Origin: Candidatus Eiseniibacteriota bacterium
GTDB taxonomy: Bacteria; Joyebacterota; Joyebacteria; Joyebacterales; Joyebacteraceae
Length of the DNA: 64,000 nucleotides
Direction of reading: 5' to 3'
Assembly: GCA_043819135.1 (NCBI GenBank)
Contig: JBDRFG010000072.1
Coordinates: 8,240-72,239, forward strand
Position numbers and translations under genes: made by a program. Below, in pieces: positions 50,603 through 55,254 of the stretch. The notes below the pieces were generated by a model that saw only the letters and a program-made list of their open reading frames with translations, ran no database searches and was not told the origin of the DNA. The number at the start of each line of letters is the position of its first letter. Position 1 is the stretch's first letter.

Positions 50603-51631
50603 CTATTCGCCCGTGATATCCAGAAACTCAGGGTCCTCGCGCAGAGGCTCGAAGTCCGTGTCGAGCCTGGCCCTCGGTCCGAGTGACTTGTCAAGACCGA
50701 CGGCGGTGCCGAGTTCCCTCAGTGCCTCGTCCCGCATCCCGGCCTTCGAGTAGTAGCAGGCCAGGTGGTAGTACGGTTCACCGAGCTCCGGATTCAGCTC
50801 CACCGCCGCCCGGCCTGCCTCGAAAGCCCTTTCCCAGTTTTCCTCTTCACAGAGACGGTAGCCTTCGAGAACGAGCGCCCATTCCTTCCACATGTCGAAG
50901 ATCCGCCTCAACTCCGCGATCGGATCCTCGTGGTCATCGACCCGAAGGTCGCAGTAGACGTCGTTGTATCCGCCGTATCCGCCGCCCTCGCGCACTATCA
51001 GGATCGCGGCGGACTGCATACCTCTGGAGTCGCCGCCGGCCGCCTGCCCGGCCTCGAGCGCGCGCATCAGCTTCTCGCCGAGAATGCCCCCGCTCTCGCC
51101 AAACGCGCGAGCCATCGCGTCGACCGTTTTCCCACTGACCAGGATATTTCCTTGCGCCGTGAAGTTCGGCCCGCTCTCGTGACCCGCCCAGTCCATGCAC
51201 TCGTCGCCGGTGTACGCGTGCGAGTTCCCCCCGGCGTCGACCATGCCCACCTGACGCTGCGCGGCGTCCGAATCATGAGCGAGCAGGCTCTCCATCGCCG
51301 CCTCAACGCTCATGCCCTCTTCCAGCATCGCGAGTCCCAGAGGACCGAACGTCGTGTTCCCGTAGGCCTGCGAAGCTACTGCGCCCACGTTCGCCCTGGC
51401 CCAGGGGACCACGGACCCGACGGCGAAGAACTTCGACTGCACGGCGACGCCGAGGTCTCCGGTCGCTGGGTCATACCCGACAATGGAGAACGTCGCGATC
51501 GGCTCCGATGCCGTCGCCGTCCCGTGAAGCGGAAGCGCCACGGCGCACGCGGCCATCATTACGAGCGCGGCCGGGAACGCCTTGCTTGCCTTTCTGATGC
51601 AAGTGTGGGGCCAGATTCCTGAATCACTCAT
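50603..51631 (-). CDS. Secreted DUF1028 (Ntn-hydrolase fold) protein fused to C-terminal TPR-like repeats
   Basis: Signal peptide. Then ATFSIVGYDPATGDLGVAVQSKFFAVGSVVPWARANVGAVASQA (DUF1028 signature with a putative nucleophile right after the signal). C-terminal helical repeats. Confidence 0.65.
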   Translation of the reverse strand: MSDSGIWPHTCIRKASKAFPAALVMMAACAVALPLHGTATASEPIATFSIVGYDPATGDLGVAVQSKFFAVGSVVPWARANVGAVASQAYGNTTFGPLGLAMLEEGMSVEAAMESLLAHDSDAAQRQVGMVDAGGNSHAYTGDECMDWAGHESGPNFTAQGNILVSGKTVDAMARAFGESGGILGEKLMRALEAGQAAGGDSRGMQSAAILIVREGGGYGGYNDVYCDLRVDDHEDPIAELRRIFDMWKEWALVLEGYRLCEEENWERAFEAGRAAVELNPELGEPYYHLACYYSKAGMRDEALRELGTAVGLDKSLGPRARLDTDFEPLREDPEFLDITGE

Positions 51632-52454
51632 CGTGTTCACGTCCTCCCGTGCGGCTTGCCGCATGCCGGATATCGTCACTGAACGGACCCTCACCTATCT
51701 TGCCCAGCAGCTCGTGAAACCACTCCTCCGCCCGCTTGCGCTTCGCGGCAAGATCTTCTTCATCTGCAATAAACATGAGCTCAGTCAGCCGCGTGACGTC
51801 GCTCGCCGGCAGGTCGTAGTGCACGTACCGAGTGTGGAAATTGTGGCGCGTCGGGTCGTGGAGGATCCGCAGCGCCTGCACCAGCGGCCTCAACGTGTAG
51901 GACTGGTAGAAGGCGACCGCCTCGATGACGTTTCCCCTGTTCAGCTCCTTCTTCGTCAGGATCTGGAACAGGCCGAACAGCACGCGGAGCTCAGCCACTC
52001 GCTCCCTGAGCGTCCTGGCGAACGACTCTGCGTCCAGCGGGTCGAAGCGCACGACACCGGTCTTGTCGAAGTAGACGCGGGGCCGTCCGTGGATCGCGGG
52101 CTGCAGGAACTTGTCCTCCGCCCCGGACTTCATCACCACGAAATCCAGCATGAGAAACGGACTCGCACCCTCGAGCGTGTAGAAGGCCTGGGAGTGGCCG
52201 TGCCAGGTGGGCTCCGGCAGACGGTACCTGACGTCCACGGCCGACAGCGTGGCCAGCGTGCGTTCCACGACGCCGAACACGTCCTCCACCCGGTCATCGT
52301 CACAGGCCACCTGAAGGTCTATGTCCGACCATTCGTCGACCCGGTCGAACGAGACCGCCCCCGCTTCCCACATCGCCTGGACGTAATCAAGCGGCTCGAG
52401 GGCGCCTCTCATCGCATCGAGGACCGCCTCACGGCCCACGTCGTACTGCGGCAT
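51624..52454 (-). CDS. Pol-beta-superfamily nucleotidyltransferase (MNT/Lnu/ANT-like) with C-terminal helical domain
   Basis: GAVSFDRVDEWSDIDLQV fits the GS-x9-SDIDL NTase motif. Third carboxylate in MLDFVV. GC somewhat below the local mean. Confidence 0.55.
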   Translation of the reverse strand: MPQYDVGREAVLDAMRGALEPLDYVQAMWEAGAVSFDRVDEWSDIDLQVACDDDRVEDVFGVVERTLATLSAVDVRYRLPEPTWHGHSQAFYTLEGASPFLMLDFVVMKSGAEDKFLQPAIHGRPRVYFDKTGVVRFDPLDAESFARTLRERVAELRVLFGLFQILTKKELNRGNVIEAVAFYQSYTLRPLVQALRILHDPTRHNFHTRYVHYDLPASDVTRLTELMFIADEEDLAAKRKRAEEWFHELLGKIGEGPFSDDIRHAASRTGGREHDE

Positions 52455-52493
52455 GTTGCTCCTCCGCGTGGTTGCGGACCCCGGCTGCGCCGG

Positions 52494-53084
52494 TCAGTCC
52501 TTGAGGTCTCTGACGGTGACTATGCTGAAATCGAGATCCTTGAAGGAGCGCGCTGTCCTCTTCGCCTCCCGGTCGATGGCCTGAGCGCCGCGACCGGAAA
52601 ACTCGTTCTTCTGGATCTGGGAGAGGATGAGCAGCTCGAAGGCGGTCGACCTCATCCAGTCGACGTCGACGCGATACCCGCACACTGCCATCGCCTGCGT
52701 CCTGTCCAGGAAGCGCCTGAGCACCCGCCTGTCTATGCGAAGCGTGCTGCAGGACGAGAACATGATGAAGCGGTTGGCGCACTTGCCCTCCATCAGCTTG
52801 CCAAGGTCATCTATGGAGTAGGAGTGCTTCCCTATCTGCAGCTCTCTGGCGCTGCCATGGGTGGCCAGATAGAGGATGGGATAGCGGTCGTAGCGCTTCT
52901 GCATCCACTTCCCTATGTAGAGTTCGAACTCCTCTATGGTCGCGCAGTCGACGTGGATGTAGTCGATGAGCGCGTTCAGGTTGAGGAGGTCCAGAAGCGG
53001 TTCGACGCTCGAAGGAGTCCGCAGATCCGGATCCCATATCCCCTCGATGCAGAAGATGCCCTTGGTCTGACCTCGCTTTCTCAT
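52494..53084 (-). CDS. Small hypothetical protein with caspase-like (clan-CD-type) His/Cys arrangement; markedly lower GC
   Basis: 196 aa. Hydrophobic strand then HG (ILYLATHGS); about 36 residues later a hydrophobic strand then Cys (RFIMFSSCST). Codon usage is AT-shifted relative to neighbours. Confidence 0.3.
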   Translation of the reverse strand: MRKRGQTKGIFCIEGIWDPDLRTPSSVEPLLDLLNLNALIDYIHVDCATIEEFELYIGKWMQKRYDRYPILYLATHGSARELQIGKHSYSIDDLGKLMEGKCANRFIMFSSCSTLRIDRRVLRRFLDRTQAMAVCGYRVDVDWMRSTAFELLILSQIQKNEFSGRGAQAIDREAKRTARSFKDLDFSIVTVRDLKD

Positions 53085-53932
53085 TCGTCCTCCGCGGCAG
53101 CGACCACCGCGCGCCGAGTGTGTTCAGCAACCGCCGCCGCGAGATGCGCGCCGCTCAGGACCAGCAGGCTCGCGATATAGACCCAGGAAAGAAGCGCCAG
53201 CAGCGTCCCCAGCGAACCGTACACGAGGTTGTAACGCATGCGTCCGCTCGACAGGAAGAGTGTGAACAGCGTGGTGCCCGCCCAGAGAGCCAGCGAACAT
53301 GCGGAGGCGCCCGCGAGCGCCTCCCTCCACAACACCTTCGTTCGCGGAAGCCACTTGTACAACAGCGTCAGGATCACCATGATAAACACCGACAGGGCCG
53401 CCGTCGATGGCACCAGCCCGAAAACCGAAGCGGCCCCCCTCTGCGCGGCCCCCCAGTCGCCGGGCAGAATGACACGCGCCTTCGCCACAAGATAGAGGAG
53501 CACGAGGCCCACCAGACTCGCGACCATCGCAAGCGCGAGCAGCCTCTCCCCGAGGAGGTTCCTTTCGCGGGCCGACGGCCACGCGCGGTTGAGATTCCGG
53601 ACCAGAGTGCTGAACGCGCTGGTCGCCGCCCACAGGAGACCGGCGACACCGATCCCGCCGACCGTACCCCGAACGCGCACGACGGCCGTGACGTTCTGAC
53701 GAACGAGCTCACGCGATACGGGTAGAAAGCGCAACACGGCCTCGAGCAGCCGCTCCTGCGCGTCGGCGGTCTCGAGCACCCTGCTTCCAACGGCTATTAG
53801 CAAAAGCAGCAGAGGAAACATGGAGAAGACCGCGTAGAAACTCATGCTGGCGGCCGCCTCCGGCCCGCGCTCGCATCCGAGCCGGAGAAACGCGGTCCGA
53901 AGGATTCGGAAGGTCGCTCGCACAGGTCGCAT
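53081..53932 (-). CDS. YihY/BrkB-family inner-membrane protein
   Basis: ...FRILRTAFLRLGCERGPEAAASMSFYAVFSMFPLLLLL... plus 6 TM helices. Start may be the internal MRPVRATF. Confidence 0.75.
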   Translation of the reverse strand: MRPVRATFRILRTAFLRLGCERGPEAAASMSFYAVFSMFPLLLLLIAVGSRVLETADAQERLLEAVLRFLPVSRELVRQNVTAVVRVRGTVGGIGVAGLLWAATSAFSTLVRNLNRAWPSARERNLLGERLLALAMVASLVGLVLLYLVAKARVILPGDWGAAQRGAASVFGLVPSTAALSVFIMVILTLLYKWLPRTKVLWREALAGASACSLALWAGTTLFTLFLSSGRMRYNLVYGSLGTLLALLSWVYIASLLVLSGAHLAAAVAEHTRRAVVAAAEDE

Positions 53933-53991
53933 AGCAGCCCCAACCTTGTGTACACTTCGTCGCGCCCGACCGACCGCTGCGGCCGACGCCA

Positions 53992-54390
53992 CTAGCTCTC
54001 GGAGGAAACCTGCTGAGCGAGTTCTTCGAGGCGGTGAATCGCCTTGGTGATCTCGTTGAGACGGAATTCGATCGAGTTCAGGATCCAGAACTGAAAATGC
54101 TCCACTCGGCCCTGCTTGTGGATCATCCAGATGATCTTTACGGACACCAGCAGCACACCGAGCTCGATGGAGAAGATCGGCGGCAGCGGCATCTCAACGC
54201 CGAGGGCGTGACGAAGCACGTCCACGACAAAGAGGAGCGCAATTGCGCTCAGAAACATGACGTTCAACACTCGGTCTCGCTTGTTCGACGCGACACCACC
54301 GATCTGACCGACGAGAGTGCGTATCTTCTCTTTCTCGTTCCTGAACTGCTCCAGCTCCTCCTGAAGAGCCGTGGTGTCCATTGATGCCAT
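53992..54390 (-). CDS. Hypothetical two-TM membrane protein with N-terminal coiled coil (low GC)
   Basis: 132 aa. No recognised motif. GC about 56% versus about 67% locally. Confidence 0.4.
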   Translation of the reverse strand: MASMDTTALQEELEQFRNEKEKIRTLVGQIGGVASNKRDRVLNVMFLSAIALLFVVDVLRHALGVEMPLPPIFSIELGVLLVSVKIIWMIHKQGRVEHFQFWILNSIEFRLNEITKAIHRLEELAQQVSSES

Positions 54391-54445: not shown

Positions 54446-54967
54446 TCATTCCCAGAACCTCTCGAATCGCTCCCGTGACGCCTTGCAGATGGGACAGGTC
54501 TCGGGCGGCTGCTCGCGCGCGCACAGATATCCGCACACCCGACACCGCCATACCGGCAGGGAGCCCTTCCCGGGCGCGGCCCCGCCCTGCGGAACCGCGC
54601 TCACGCGCGCTCTTTGATCTTGCGTAGCCGGCCGCCTCTCCGGTATTGCCTCGAGCGCCCTACCACCCTCGAGGACTTCCTTCGACACGTACAGGGCGCA
54701 ATAGCAGGCGCCCCACTCCGCGAGGTCGGCGTCCCTGTAGTCGCATGGACACACTATGTCCAGGTCTTCCGCCGCGTCACCGGACGCCAGACGACAGGGG
54801 CAGCTTCCGTACCCGAAGCGCCCCTCGTTGACGAGGAGCCCCTCCGCCAGTGCGCCTGAGAACGCGGGGTCGGGATTGAGATGGTAGCCGCTGGATTCGG
54901 CATCGCGGTCCAGTACGGCTCGGAGCGCCTCTGTTTCCTCGTTCGGAATGCTGGAGTCAGTGCTCAA
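54446..54967 (-). CDS. Ferredoxin:disulfide reductase (FTR catalytic-subunit-like domain fused to C-terminal rubredoxin-like domain)
   Basis: FTR-beta motif SCPCRL...DIVCPCDY...CYC. C-terminal WRCRVCGY...CPICK rubredoxin knuckles. Probable TTG start forming TTGA with the upstream glutaredoxin stop. The track ORF (ATG at 55063) would overlap the neighbour by 100 nt. Confidence 0.65.
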   Translation of the reverse strand: MSTDSSIPNEETEALRAVLDRDAESSGYHLNPDPAFSGALAEGLLVNEGRFGYGSCPCRLASGDAAEDLDIVCPCDYRDADLAEWGACYCALYVSKEVLEGGRALEAIPERRPATQDQRARVSAVPQGGAAPGKGSLPVWRCRVCGYLCAREQPPETCPICKASRERFERFWE

Positions 54968-55254
54968 AACCCGAGGATCTCCTTCGCCTCGTCCGGCTTG
55001 TATCCGTTCACCGACCGGACCCCGTCGATCACGAGCGTCGGGAAAGACACGGCCGGATTCCACCTGCGCACCTCACCAAGCGCCGCATCCCGCTCGGCGC
55101 TCTCGAGCTTGTCGACGTACACGACCGCGAACACCACGCCCTCGCTCTCAAGAAACTGCCTCATCTTCTTGCACCATACGCACGTCGACAGACCGTACAT
55201 GACGACGTCGTGCTCCGACGCTCCACCCGGTCCGTCACCCGCCGTCGACATCAT
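54964..55254 (-). CDS. Glutaredoxin/thioredoxin-fold protein (CxxC)
   Basis: VVMYGLSTCVWCKK...FPTLVIDG. Confidence 0.75.
   Translation of the reverse strand: MMSTAGDGPGGASEHDVVMYGLSTCVWCKKMRQFLESEGVVFAVVYVDKLESAERDAALGEVRRWNPAVSFPTLVIDGVRSVNGYKPDEAKEILGF

Follow-up and report, generated by a model that had tools for sequence, protein, structure and literature searches.

In the genome of a Candidatus Eisenbacteria bacterium, a 64,000-nucleotide stretch of contig JBDRFG010000072.1 (positions 8,240 to 72,239; hereafter the window) carries two adjacent minus-strand genes, one encoding a protein of 196 amino acids (aa; 52494..53084) and the other a protein of 276 aa (51624..52454). A first-pass annotation had described the smaller protein as resembling clan-CD peptidases and the larger as a nucleotidyltransferase, and had suggested that the two could form a defence or toxin cassette. 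The locus thus raises the question of what each protein is and whether the pair forms a module at all. The explanation that we judge best overall, and likely to be correct, is that the genes are independent neighbours: the 196-aa protein, a member of Pfam family DUF6642, is a minimal caspase/CHAT-like protein, and the 276-aa protein is a nucleotidyltransferase of the LinB/ANT(6) type.

The DUF6642 protein is predicted to adopt a caspase fold

The 196-aa protein matches DUF6642 (PF20347) over residues 9-159 with a score of 99.1 bits against a gathering cut-off of 27 (E 3e-28), and its NCBI name is already 'DUF6642 family protein'. Nothing else in Pfam was matched at E <= 1, the models for Peptidase C14 (PF00656) and CHAT (PF12770) being among those without a match, and searches of NCBIfam, PADLOC and PHROGs returned none. 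An AlphaFold2 model computed from a 34-sequence alignment (predicted local distance difference test score, or pLDDT, 86.5; predicted template modelling score, or pTM, 0.87) has strands at residues 9-15 (β1), 41-47 (β2), 70-74 (β3), 106-111 (β4), 133-139 (β5) and 184-190 (β6), a hairpin at 81-90, and helices between them. When this model was compared with the PDB using Foldseek, 180 matches were obtained at E <= 1e-3, and the best 50 of these are all caspases or CHAT proteases (clan CD), with a probability of 1.00 and query-based template modelling (TM) scores, or TMq, of 0.50-0.63. The best match is the SAVED-CHAT filament 8tl0 (E 3e-8, TMq 0.58-0.59), and caspases-7, -3, -4/11, -6, -8 and -1 follow at E 1e-6 to 1e-4. 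Among the independently predicted viral structures of BFVD, the model matches caspase-domain proteins, an ascovirus executioner caspase and clostripain. The top viral match is an uncharacterised 320-aa phage protein (A0A8S5MXG5, Myoviridae sp. ctWaE18; E 1.5e-9, TMq 0.71), which outscores every annotated viral caspase in structure; yet tblastn found no sequence homologue of DUF6642 in the phage collection.

In the model, His76-Gly77 (ILYLATH76G) lies at the C-terminal end of β3 and Cys112 (IMFSSC112) at that of β4, 36 residues apart; the codons of the two candidate catalytic residues are at 52857..52859 and 52749..52751, respectively, on the minus strand. His76, Gly77 and Cys112, together with Cys12, Glu14, Gly15, Trp17, Gly136 and Trp143, are identical in all 201 of 201 homologues, down to 39% identity. 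Because the first three residues are invariant, the strand-HG...strand-(S)C pattern pointed out in the first-pass annotation is not a chance occurrence, and the clan-CD likeness proposed there is borne out by the predicted fold, which has His and Cys in the catalytic positions. Sequence comparison points the same way. A search of PDB sequences with the DUF6642 profile gave as its best match the large subunit of caspase-6, at a non-significant E of 0.6, with SHG...C aligned to SHGE...QAC; hhalign placed His76 on His121 and Cys112 on Cys163 of caspase-3 (whose sequence was checked against the PDB), and also aligned the GxxC preceding β4, with a probability of 4.7%.

The likeness to caspases and other Peptidase C14 proteins (caspase-3, -6 and -7, orthocaspases and metacaspases) thus appears to extend from the six-stranded α/β fold, with His-Gly after β3 and Cys after β4, to the β-hairpin and helix between the candidate catalytic residues and the aligned G-x-x-C. 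There are differences as well: the His-Cys spacing of 36 residues compares with 42 in caspase-3, the chain of ~196 aa with ~250 for a caspase p20+p10 unit, and the SSC-S-T motif with QACRG in caspases and DxCHSG in metacaspases. DUF6642 has no inter-subunit linker or pro-domain, its specificity-pocket residues are not recognisably conserved, and its resemblance to C14 does not reach a significant Pfam match. Like the CHAT proteases (the SAVED-CHAT protein of type III-B CRISPR, 8tl0, and Csx29), it would be a single-chain clan-CD fold without linker cleavage, but members of the CHAT group are big proteins with sensor domains (SAVED, TPR), encoded in CRISPR or defence loci, whereas DUF6642 proteins stand alone with neither sensor nor defence context.

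Taken together, the predicted six-stranded α/β fold and the conserved His-Gly and Cys after successive strands are those of clan CD, and on the strength mainly of the predicted structure we regard DUF6642 as a cytosolic protein of minimal size, made of a single chain and homologous to the caspase/CHAT cysteine peptidases. Cys112 would then act as the nucleophile and His76 as the general acid/base, and the invariant Glu14 at the end of β1 (codon 53043..53045, minus strand) might be a third active-site residue that orients His76. We take its position to be analogous, by topology only, to Asn42 of legumain and Glu152 of gingipain. Such a protein may work as a cytosolic cysteine endopeptidase or transpeptidase on a cytosolic substrate, and a single chain lacking pro-domain and inter-subunit linker suggests that no activating cleavage would be needed.

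DUF6642 proteins are widespread and stand alone

An exhaustive profile search yielded at least 1,447 representative DUF6642 clusters, defined at 50% identity, at E <= 1e-3, and 962 at E <= 1e-10. The family occurs in more than ten phyla, with loci in Eisenbacteria, TA06, Cloacimonadota, Fibrobacterota, Bacteroidota (including the cultured Adhaeribacter terreus), Verrucomicrobiota, Planctomycetota, Gemmatimonadota, Acidobacteriota, Syntrophaceae, Anaerolineales and others. Almost all of its members are stand-alone proteins of 185-210 aa, and no further Pfam domain was found in the longer ones (P0298, P0351, P0287, P0311, P0388 and others). Two of these are rare fusions: P0351 (413 aa) ends in three copies of a ~45-aa 'YRVGDxVxAxYDG...' repeat, which by eye resembles Tudor/SH3 domains and has no Pfam match, and P0298 (399 aa) begins with a domain of ~200 aa that likewise has no Pfam match.

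The gene neighbourhood was surveyed by clustering all open reading frames (ORFs) within 4 kb of DUF6642 at 80 species-representative loci, and the clusters reflect lineage-specific synteny only. One cluster that seemed to span several phyla was discarded, as it had arisen from promiscuous domains common to subtilases and proteins with type IX secretion tails. In another subclade of Eisenbacteria/Latescibacteria (loci L020, L024, L017 and L001), DUF6642 is flanked by between one and three genes for large subtilases (S8) whose C-terminal domains are of the type IX secretion sorting kind; this, too, is probably lineage synteny.

No DUF6642 match was found in the phage collection, and plasmids contributed a single distant homologue of 242 aa with 30% identity (L166, Brevibacterium spongiae plasmid NZ_CP093444.1, 4794-5522), which at that distance was rejected as evidence that this subfamily is linked to mobile elements. 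In this single case, from a distant subfamily, the gene lies ~1.3 kb downstream of one for an 'abortive infection family protein' (Abi). Among the papers searched, none names DUF6642 or PF20347, and a search combining caspase, CHAT and DUF found nothing. Pfam assigns no function to the family. Its small size, wide spread, predicted caspase fold, intact dyad and lack of a defence context make it a modest but real lead.

The 276-aa protein resembles two-domain antibiotic nucleotidyltransferases

The pol-beta motif of the 276-aa protein, GAVSFDRVDEWSDIDL (52314..52361, minus strand), follows the pattern G32-A33-x9-S43-D44-I-D46-L; the motif had been reported as GS-x9-SDIDL and is indeed present, although it reads GA and not GS. 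A predicted third metal-binding carboxylate, Asp104 (codon 52143..52145, minus strand), lies on a strand formed by residues 102-109 of the AlphaFold2 model, and G32, A33, S43, D44, D46 and D104 are invariant in a 30-sequence alignment. The protein has no match in Pfam (the ANT(6) model included) or NCBIfam at E <= 1, nor in PADLOC; searches of PDB sequences with the single sequence and with a profile gave none, and PHROGs returned nothing usable. A few members of its family show weak matches to NTP_transf_2/Polbeta (E 0.01-0.16).

The model (pLDDT 91.1) consists of an N-terminal α/β domain and a C-terminal helical domain. The best Foldseek match is LinB/Lnu(B) (3jyy; E 2.6e-8, TM 0.67/0.69), followed by ANT(6)-Ib (8vxb, TM 0.63), and further matches are to ANT(6) (2pbe), ANT(4') and AadA, whereas CD-NTases and OAS reach TM scores of only ~0.25-0.30. 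LinB and the ANT(6) streptomycin adenylyltransferases (8vxb, 2pbe) share with it the pol-beta catalytic domain joined to a helical C-terminal domain, with TM scores of 0.63-0.69 over ~290 columns, and the G[SA]...DxD...D catalytic signature. They differ in that identity is 10-11%, no curated ANT/Lnu model is matched, and the gene here is chromosomal and non-mobile. The protein thus has the two-domain fold of the Lnu/ANT enzymes while falling outside their curated sequence families, and the model indicates an ANT/Lnu-like enzyme of the pol-beta superfamily and not a cyclic-nucleotide synthase, in keeping with one of the two options first suggested. The other option, a minimal nucleotidyltransferase (MNT), does not fit: the nucleotidyltransferases of HEPN-MNT pairs are single domains of ~100-150 aa with a HEPN partner, and this protein has 276 aa, two domains, and DUF6642 and DUF1028 as its neighbours. 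By analogy with LinB and ANT(6), the N-terminal domain (G32/A33, D44, D46, D104) would catalyse a two-metal transfer of a nucleotidyl group from an Mg-bound nucleoside triphosphate to a hydroxyl of a small molecule held between the two domains.

Homologues occur in diverse gene contexts and are widespread among uncultured members of the Chloroflexota and Eisenbacteria, and a search of plasmids found no copies. GyrI-like proteins adjoin the gene in six loci and AHSA1/SRPBCC proteins in five; these and a peroxiredoxin-glutaredoxin neighbour are each confined to one lineage, and none is general. In nine metagenome loci (L086-L089, L093, L102, L127, L131 and L137), down to ~50% identity in the nucleotidyltransferase, the neighbour is a secreted DUF1028 (+TPR) protein, encoded in the window by the ORF at 50603-51694 (minus strand). 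This linkage is deeper than that with DUF6642, and may be functional or lineage synteny only. The nucleotidyltransferase family is absent from Pfam and NCBIfam and could be added there as a LinB/ANT(6)-like family.

The two genes are probably adjacent by descent

Adjacency was assessed from both sides. Of the 80 species-representative DUF6642 loci, 72 extend at least 1 kb downstream of the gene; an intact nucleotidyltransferase follows in 4 of the 72 and an internally deleted remnant in 3, while the other 65 have no nucleotidyltransferase within 8 kb. All four intact cases are close Eisenbacteria relatives (L006 and L008-L010) that share a block consisting of a small ORF, YihY, DUF6642, the nucleotidyltransferase and DUF1028. 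The remnants (L011:1049-1378, L012:8668-8997 and L013:8639-9108) come from related Eisenbacteria, where an open reading frame of 109 aa persists with DUF6642 and DUF1028 whole on either side. The L012 copy joins residues 1-27 in frame to ~195-276, so that ~28-194, the whole catalytic core, are lost while DUF6642 is intact. Elsewhere the nucleotidyltransferase slot holds an ORF for a HAD-type hydrolase (L007:9420-10118 and L015:8679-9389, with Pfam run on the L015 copy), accompanied in L007 by an additional 195-aa ORF, and in L014 the spacing of DUF6642 and DUF1028 is the same, without a nucleotidyltransferase. The slot between DUF6642 and DUF1028 is therefore a variable position inside an otherwise conserved block, and the nucleotidyltransferase would be a dispensable accessory gene, deleted or replaced in close relatives.

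In the reciprocal set of 80 metagenome loci centred on the nucleotidyltransferase, 53 of which have room upstream, a single locus holds DUF6642 (L087, a close relative). Another, L102, has YihY, the nucleotidyltransferase and DUF1028 in order, with a gap of 10 nt where DUF6642 would be. Single look-ups in Latescibacteria, Cloacimonadota and Anaerolineae found distant homologues of each gene in unrelated contexts. From the intact, remnant and replaced states together with L102, it follows that each gene has come or gone independently of the other within a common backbone, and the adjacency of the pair is synteny by descent and not a functional module. The pair is thus not the conserved cassette that had been envisaged, and PADLOC gave 0 matches for either protein, so that the locus has neither a recognised defence-system component nor a conserved operon partner.

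Composition and inheritance of the DUF6642 gene

The GC content of the DUF6642 gene is 0.587, ~2.4 standard deviations below the mean of the 54 ORFs in the window (0.643, standard deviation 0.024). Its codon usage had been described as clearly AT-shifted, a sign of horizontal acquisition; the low overall GC stands, but GC at third codon positions (GC3) is 0.83, where the window averages 0.80, and it is the first (0.54) and second (0.39) codon positions that are poor in GC, because the protein has a conserved amino-acid composition rich in Lys, Ile, Phe, Tyr and Ser. Identities to the relatives L008 and L010 are 74-75% for DUF6642, 71-72% for YihY, 76-77% for the nucleotidyltransferase and 77-78% for DUF1028. 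Around the gene pair there are no flanking repeats beyond short imperfect ones, and no tRNA or other RNA genes or integrase. The codon usage of the DUF6642 gene is native, and the gene is most likely vertically inherited.

Organisation of the locus

Both ORFs exist as first annotated, except that the 196-aa one does not follow the other: on the minus strand the DUF6642 gene is transcribed first and the nucleotidyltransferase gene second, after a spacer of 39 nt in which a Shine-Dalgarno sequence (GGAGGAG, 52459..52465) lies 4 nt upstream of the second ATG. Upstream is a gene for a YihY/BrkB-family membrane protein (53081..53992, minus strand; PF03631, E 2e-43), whose stop overlaps the DUF6642 start (ATGA). 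Downstream is the gene for the secreted DUF1028 and TPR protein (50603..51631, minus strand; PF06267, E 2e-75), which probably begins with the ATG at 51631 and would then share 8 nt with the end of the nucleotidyltransferase gene. No terminator-like site was found between these minus-strand genes. The wider surroundings are housekeeping genes (ribosomal proteins L21 and L27, GlnRS and a hybrid histidine kinase, from translations read by eye), and no Rfam family was found in the window. On the explanation that we favour, DUF6642 and the nucleotidyltransferase are independent chromosomal genes that merely happen to adjoin within a long co-directional array.

A 532-aa plus-strand ORF (51582-53180) that overlaps both genes was presumed to be an antisense artefact of the kind usual in GC-rich genomes, because the minus-strand genes have a GC3 of 0.83 and conserved homologues and were kept by GC3-guided ORF selection. 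Further upstream, a 132-aa ORF (53992-54390, minus strand) with no Pfam match has the lowest GC in the window (0.558; GC3 0.77). It resembles a small membrane protein, its stop abuts the YihY start, and it is 65-86% conserved in relatives, always upstream of YihY. Beyond it, 54446-55063 (minus strand) encodes a protein in which a ferredoxin-thioredoxin reductase catalytic beta-chain domain is followed by a rubredoxin-like domain at the C terminus (Pfam FeThRed_B and RUBY_RBDX), adjoined by ORFs that look by eye glutaredoxin-like (54964-55254) and MTH1187/YkoF-like.

Alternative explanations

If the cassette originally proposed existed, a nucleotide signal or modification could control the protease, as in CBASS, type III CRISPR SAVED-CHAT or type IV Thoeris. 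Signal-controlled caspase-like proteases do occur in bacterial immunity (bioRxiv 10.1101/2024.10.24.620036; 10.1101/2023.06.23.546230), and the two genes are co-directional neighbours with a short gap that recur together in L006, L008-L010 and L087. The adjacency is confined, however, to one shallow clade and lies inside a larger syntenic block; that same clade deletes or replaces the nucleotidyltransferase next to an intact DUF6642 and includes a relative with the reverse combination, and 65 of the 72 DUF6642 loci and 79 of the 80 centred on the nucleotidyltransferase are without the partner. Moreover, the enzyme resembles drug-modifying ANT/Lnu proteins and not CD-NTases (TM 0.27-0.28), DUF6642 has no sensor domain, and PADLOC and the phage collection yielded no match and the plasmids one distant match. 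The phyletic pattern has largely refuted the cassette, which we consider very improbable; the fallback then offered, an enzyme with an unrelated neighbour, came closest. Equally improbable is a recent horizontal arrival of the DUF6642 gene or of the pair, as its low GC had suggested. It would account for the local dip in the GC profile, but host-level GC3 refutes it as far as codon usage is concerned; the DUF6642 gene is also syntenic in relatives with divergence like that of its neighbours, mobile-element hallmarks are missing from the flanks, and the small membrane-protein ORF next to YihY is lower still in GC with a likewise high GC3.

Alternatively, DUF6642 could have a caspase fold without being a peptidase, its cysteines and histidine (C12, H76, C102, C112) serving in metal binding, redox sensing or thioester/acyl transfer, or the protein acting as a scaffold like the inactive caspase-like domain of Raptor. 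In favour of this, four Cys/His residues are invariant or nearly so, as is typical of metal sites; the chain is very short, at 196 aa; no gene for a substrate, inhibitor or regulator goes with it; and the Pfam C14 and CHAT models do not recognise it. Yet His-Gly after β3 and Cys after β4 are exactly the clan-CD catalytic arrangement and are absolutely conserved, whereas pseudo-caspases typically lack the dyad and pseudo-orthocaspases have Y/S in place of the catalytic H/C (PMC6426788). C102, moreover, precedes β4 on the far side of the sheet and is aligned with the cysteine of the GDxC motif in caspase-3 and -6, which makes a metal site shared with H76 and C112 unlikely. On balance a non-peptidase role is unlikely, although it is the most serious of the alternatives. 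Less probable again is that the 276-aa protein confers genuine antibiotic resistance by modifying lincosamides or aminoglycosides, as nucleotidyltransferases of the Lnu/ANT type do. LinB, ANT(6)-Ib and ANT(4') are its best structural matches across both domains, and some homologues adjoin proteins with small-molecule-binding domains (the GyrI-like and AHSA1/SRPBCC loci), but identity to the structural matches is 10-14%, no curated family is matched, the gene is spread over varied contexts in uncultured lineages, no plasmid copies were found, and fold similarity does not fix the substrate.

Several points weigh against our own interpretation of two independent genes, one of them for a caspase-like enzyme. 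The sequence links between DUF6642 and caspases are weak when taken alone, which leaves the assignment to come mainly from predicted structure; the proximity of His76 and Cys112 is deduced from the adjacent parallel strands and strand topology only; and the activities of DUF6642 and the nucleotidyltransferase alike are predictions. Neither the 80 species loci nor the longer family members offered a neighbour conserved across phyla, a fusion partner or a clue to the substrate. Finally, the genes are tightly packed, with overlaps or short gaps and no terminator-like site, and co-transcription in this organism is therefore likely, so that a link in function specific to this lineage is conceivable.

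Implications

The proposed module of nucleotidyltransferase and protease does not exist, and the locus, in itself ordinary, adds no new defence or toxin system. What it draws attention to is the DUF6642 family. The bacterial caspase-like proteases described so far include sensor-coupled immune effectors (bioRxiv 10.1101/2024.10.24.620036; 10.1101/2023.06.23.546230), and others are orthocaspases (PMC6426788). A strongly conserved, stand-alone protein of ~195 aa with a predicted caspase fold, an intact dyad and no defence context has a profile unlike that of the bacterial caspase homologues that have been studied. These are mostly large death or defence effectors linked to sensors, or cyanobacterial orthocaspases. 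We tentatively propose, as a possibility that falls short of an even chance, that DUF6642 comprises the smallest single-chain relatives of caspases, a widespread family not recognised before, with a Cys-His(-Glu) centre and neither pro-domain nor sensor domain, which would serve as housekeeping cytosolic proteases or transpeptidases and not as death or defence effectors. Should DUF6642 prove to be catalytically active, it would mark the smallest unit of the caspase fold that supports catalysis, and would suggest that bacterial caspase-like enzymes have a role outside immunity.

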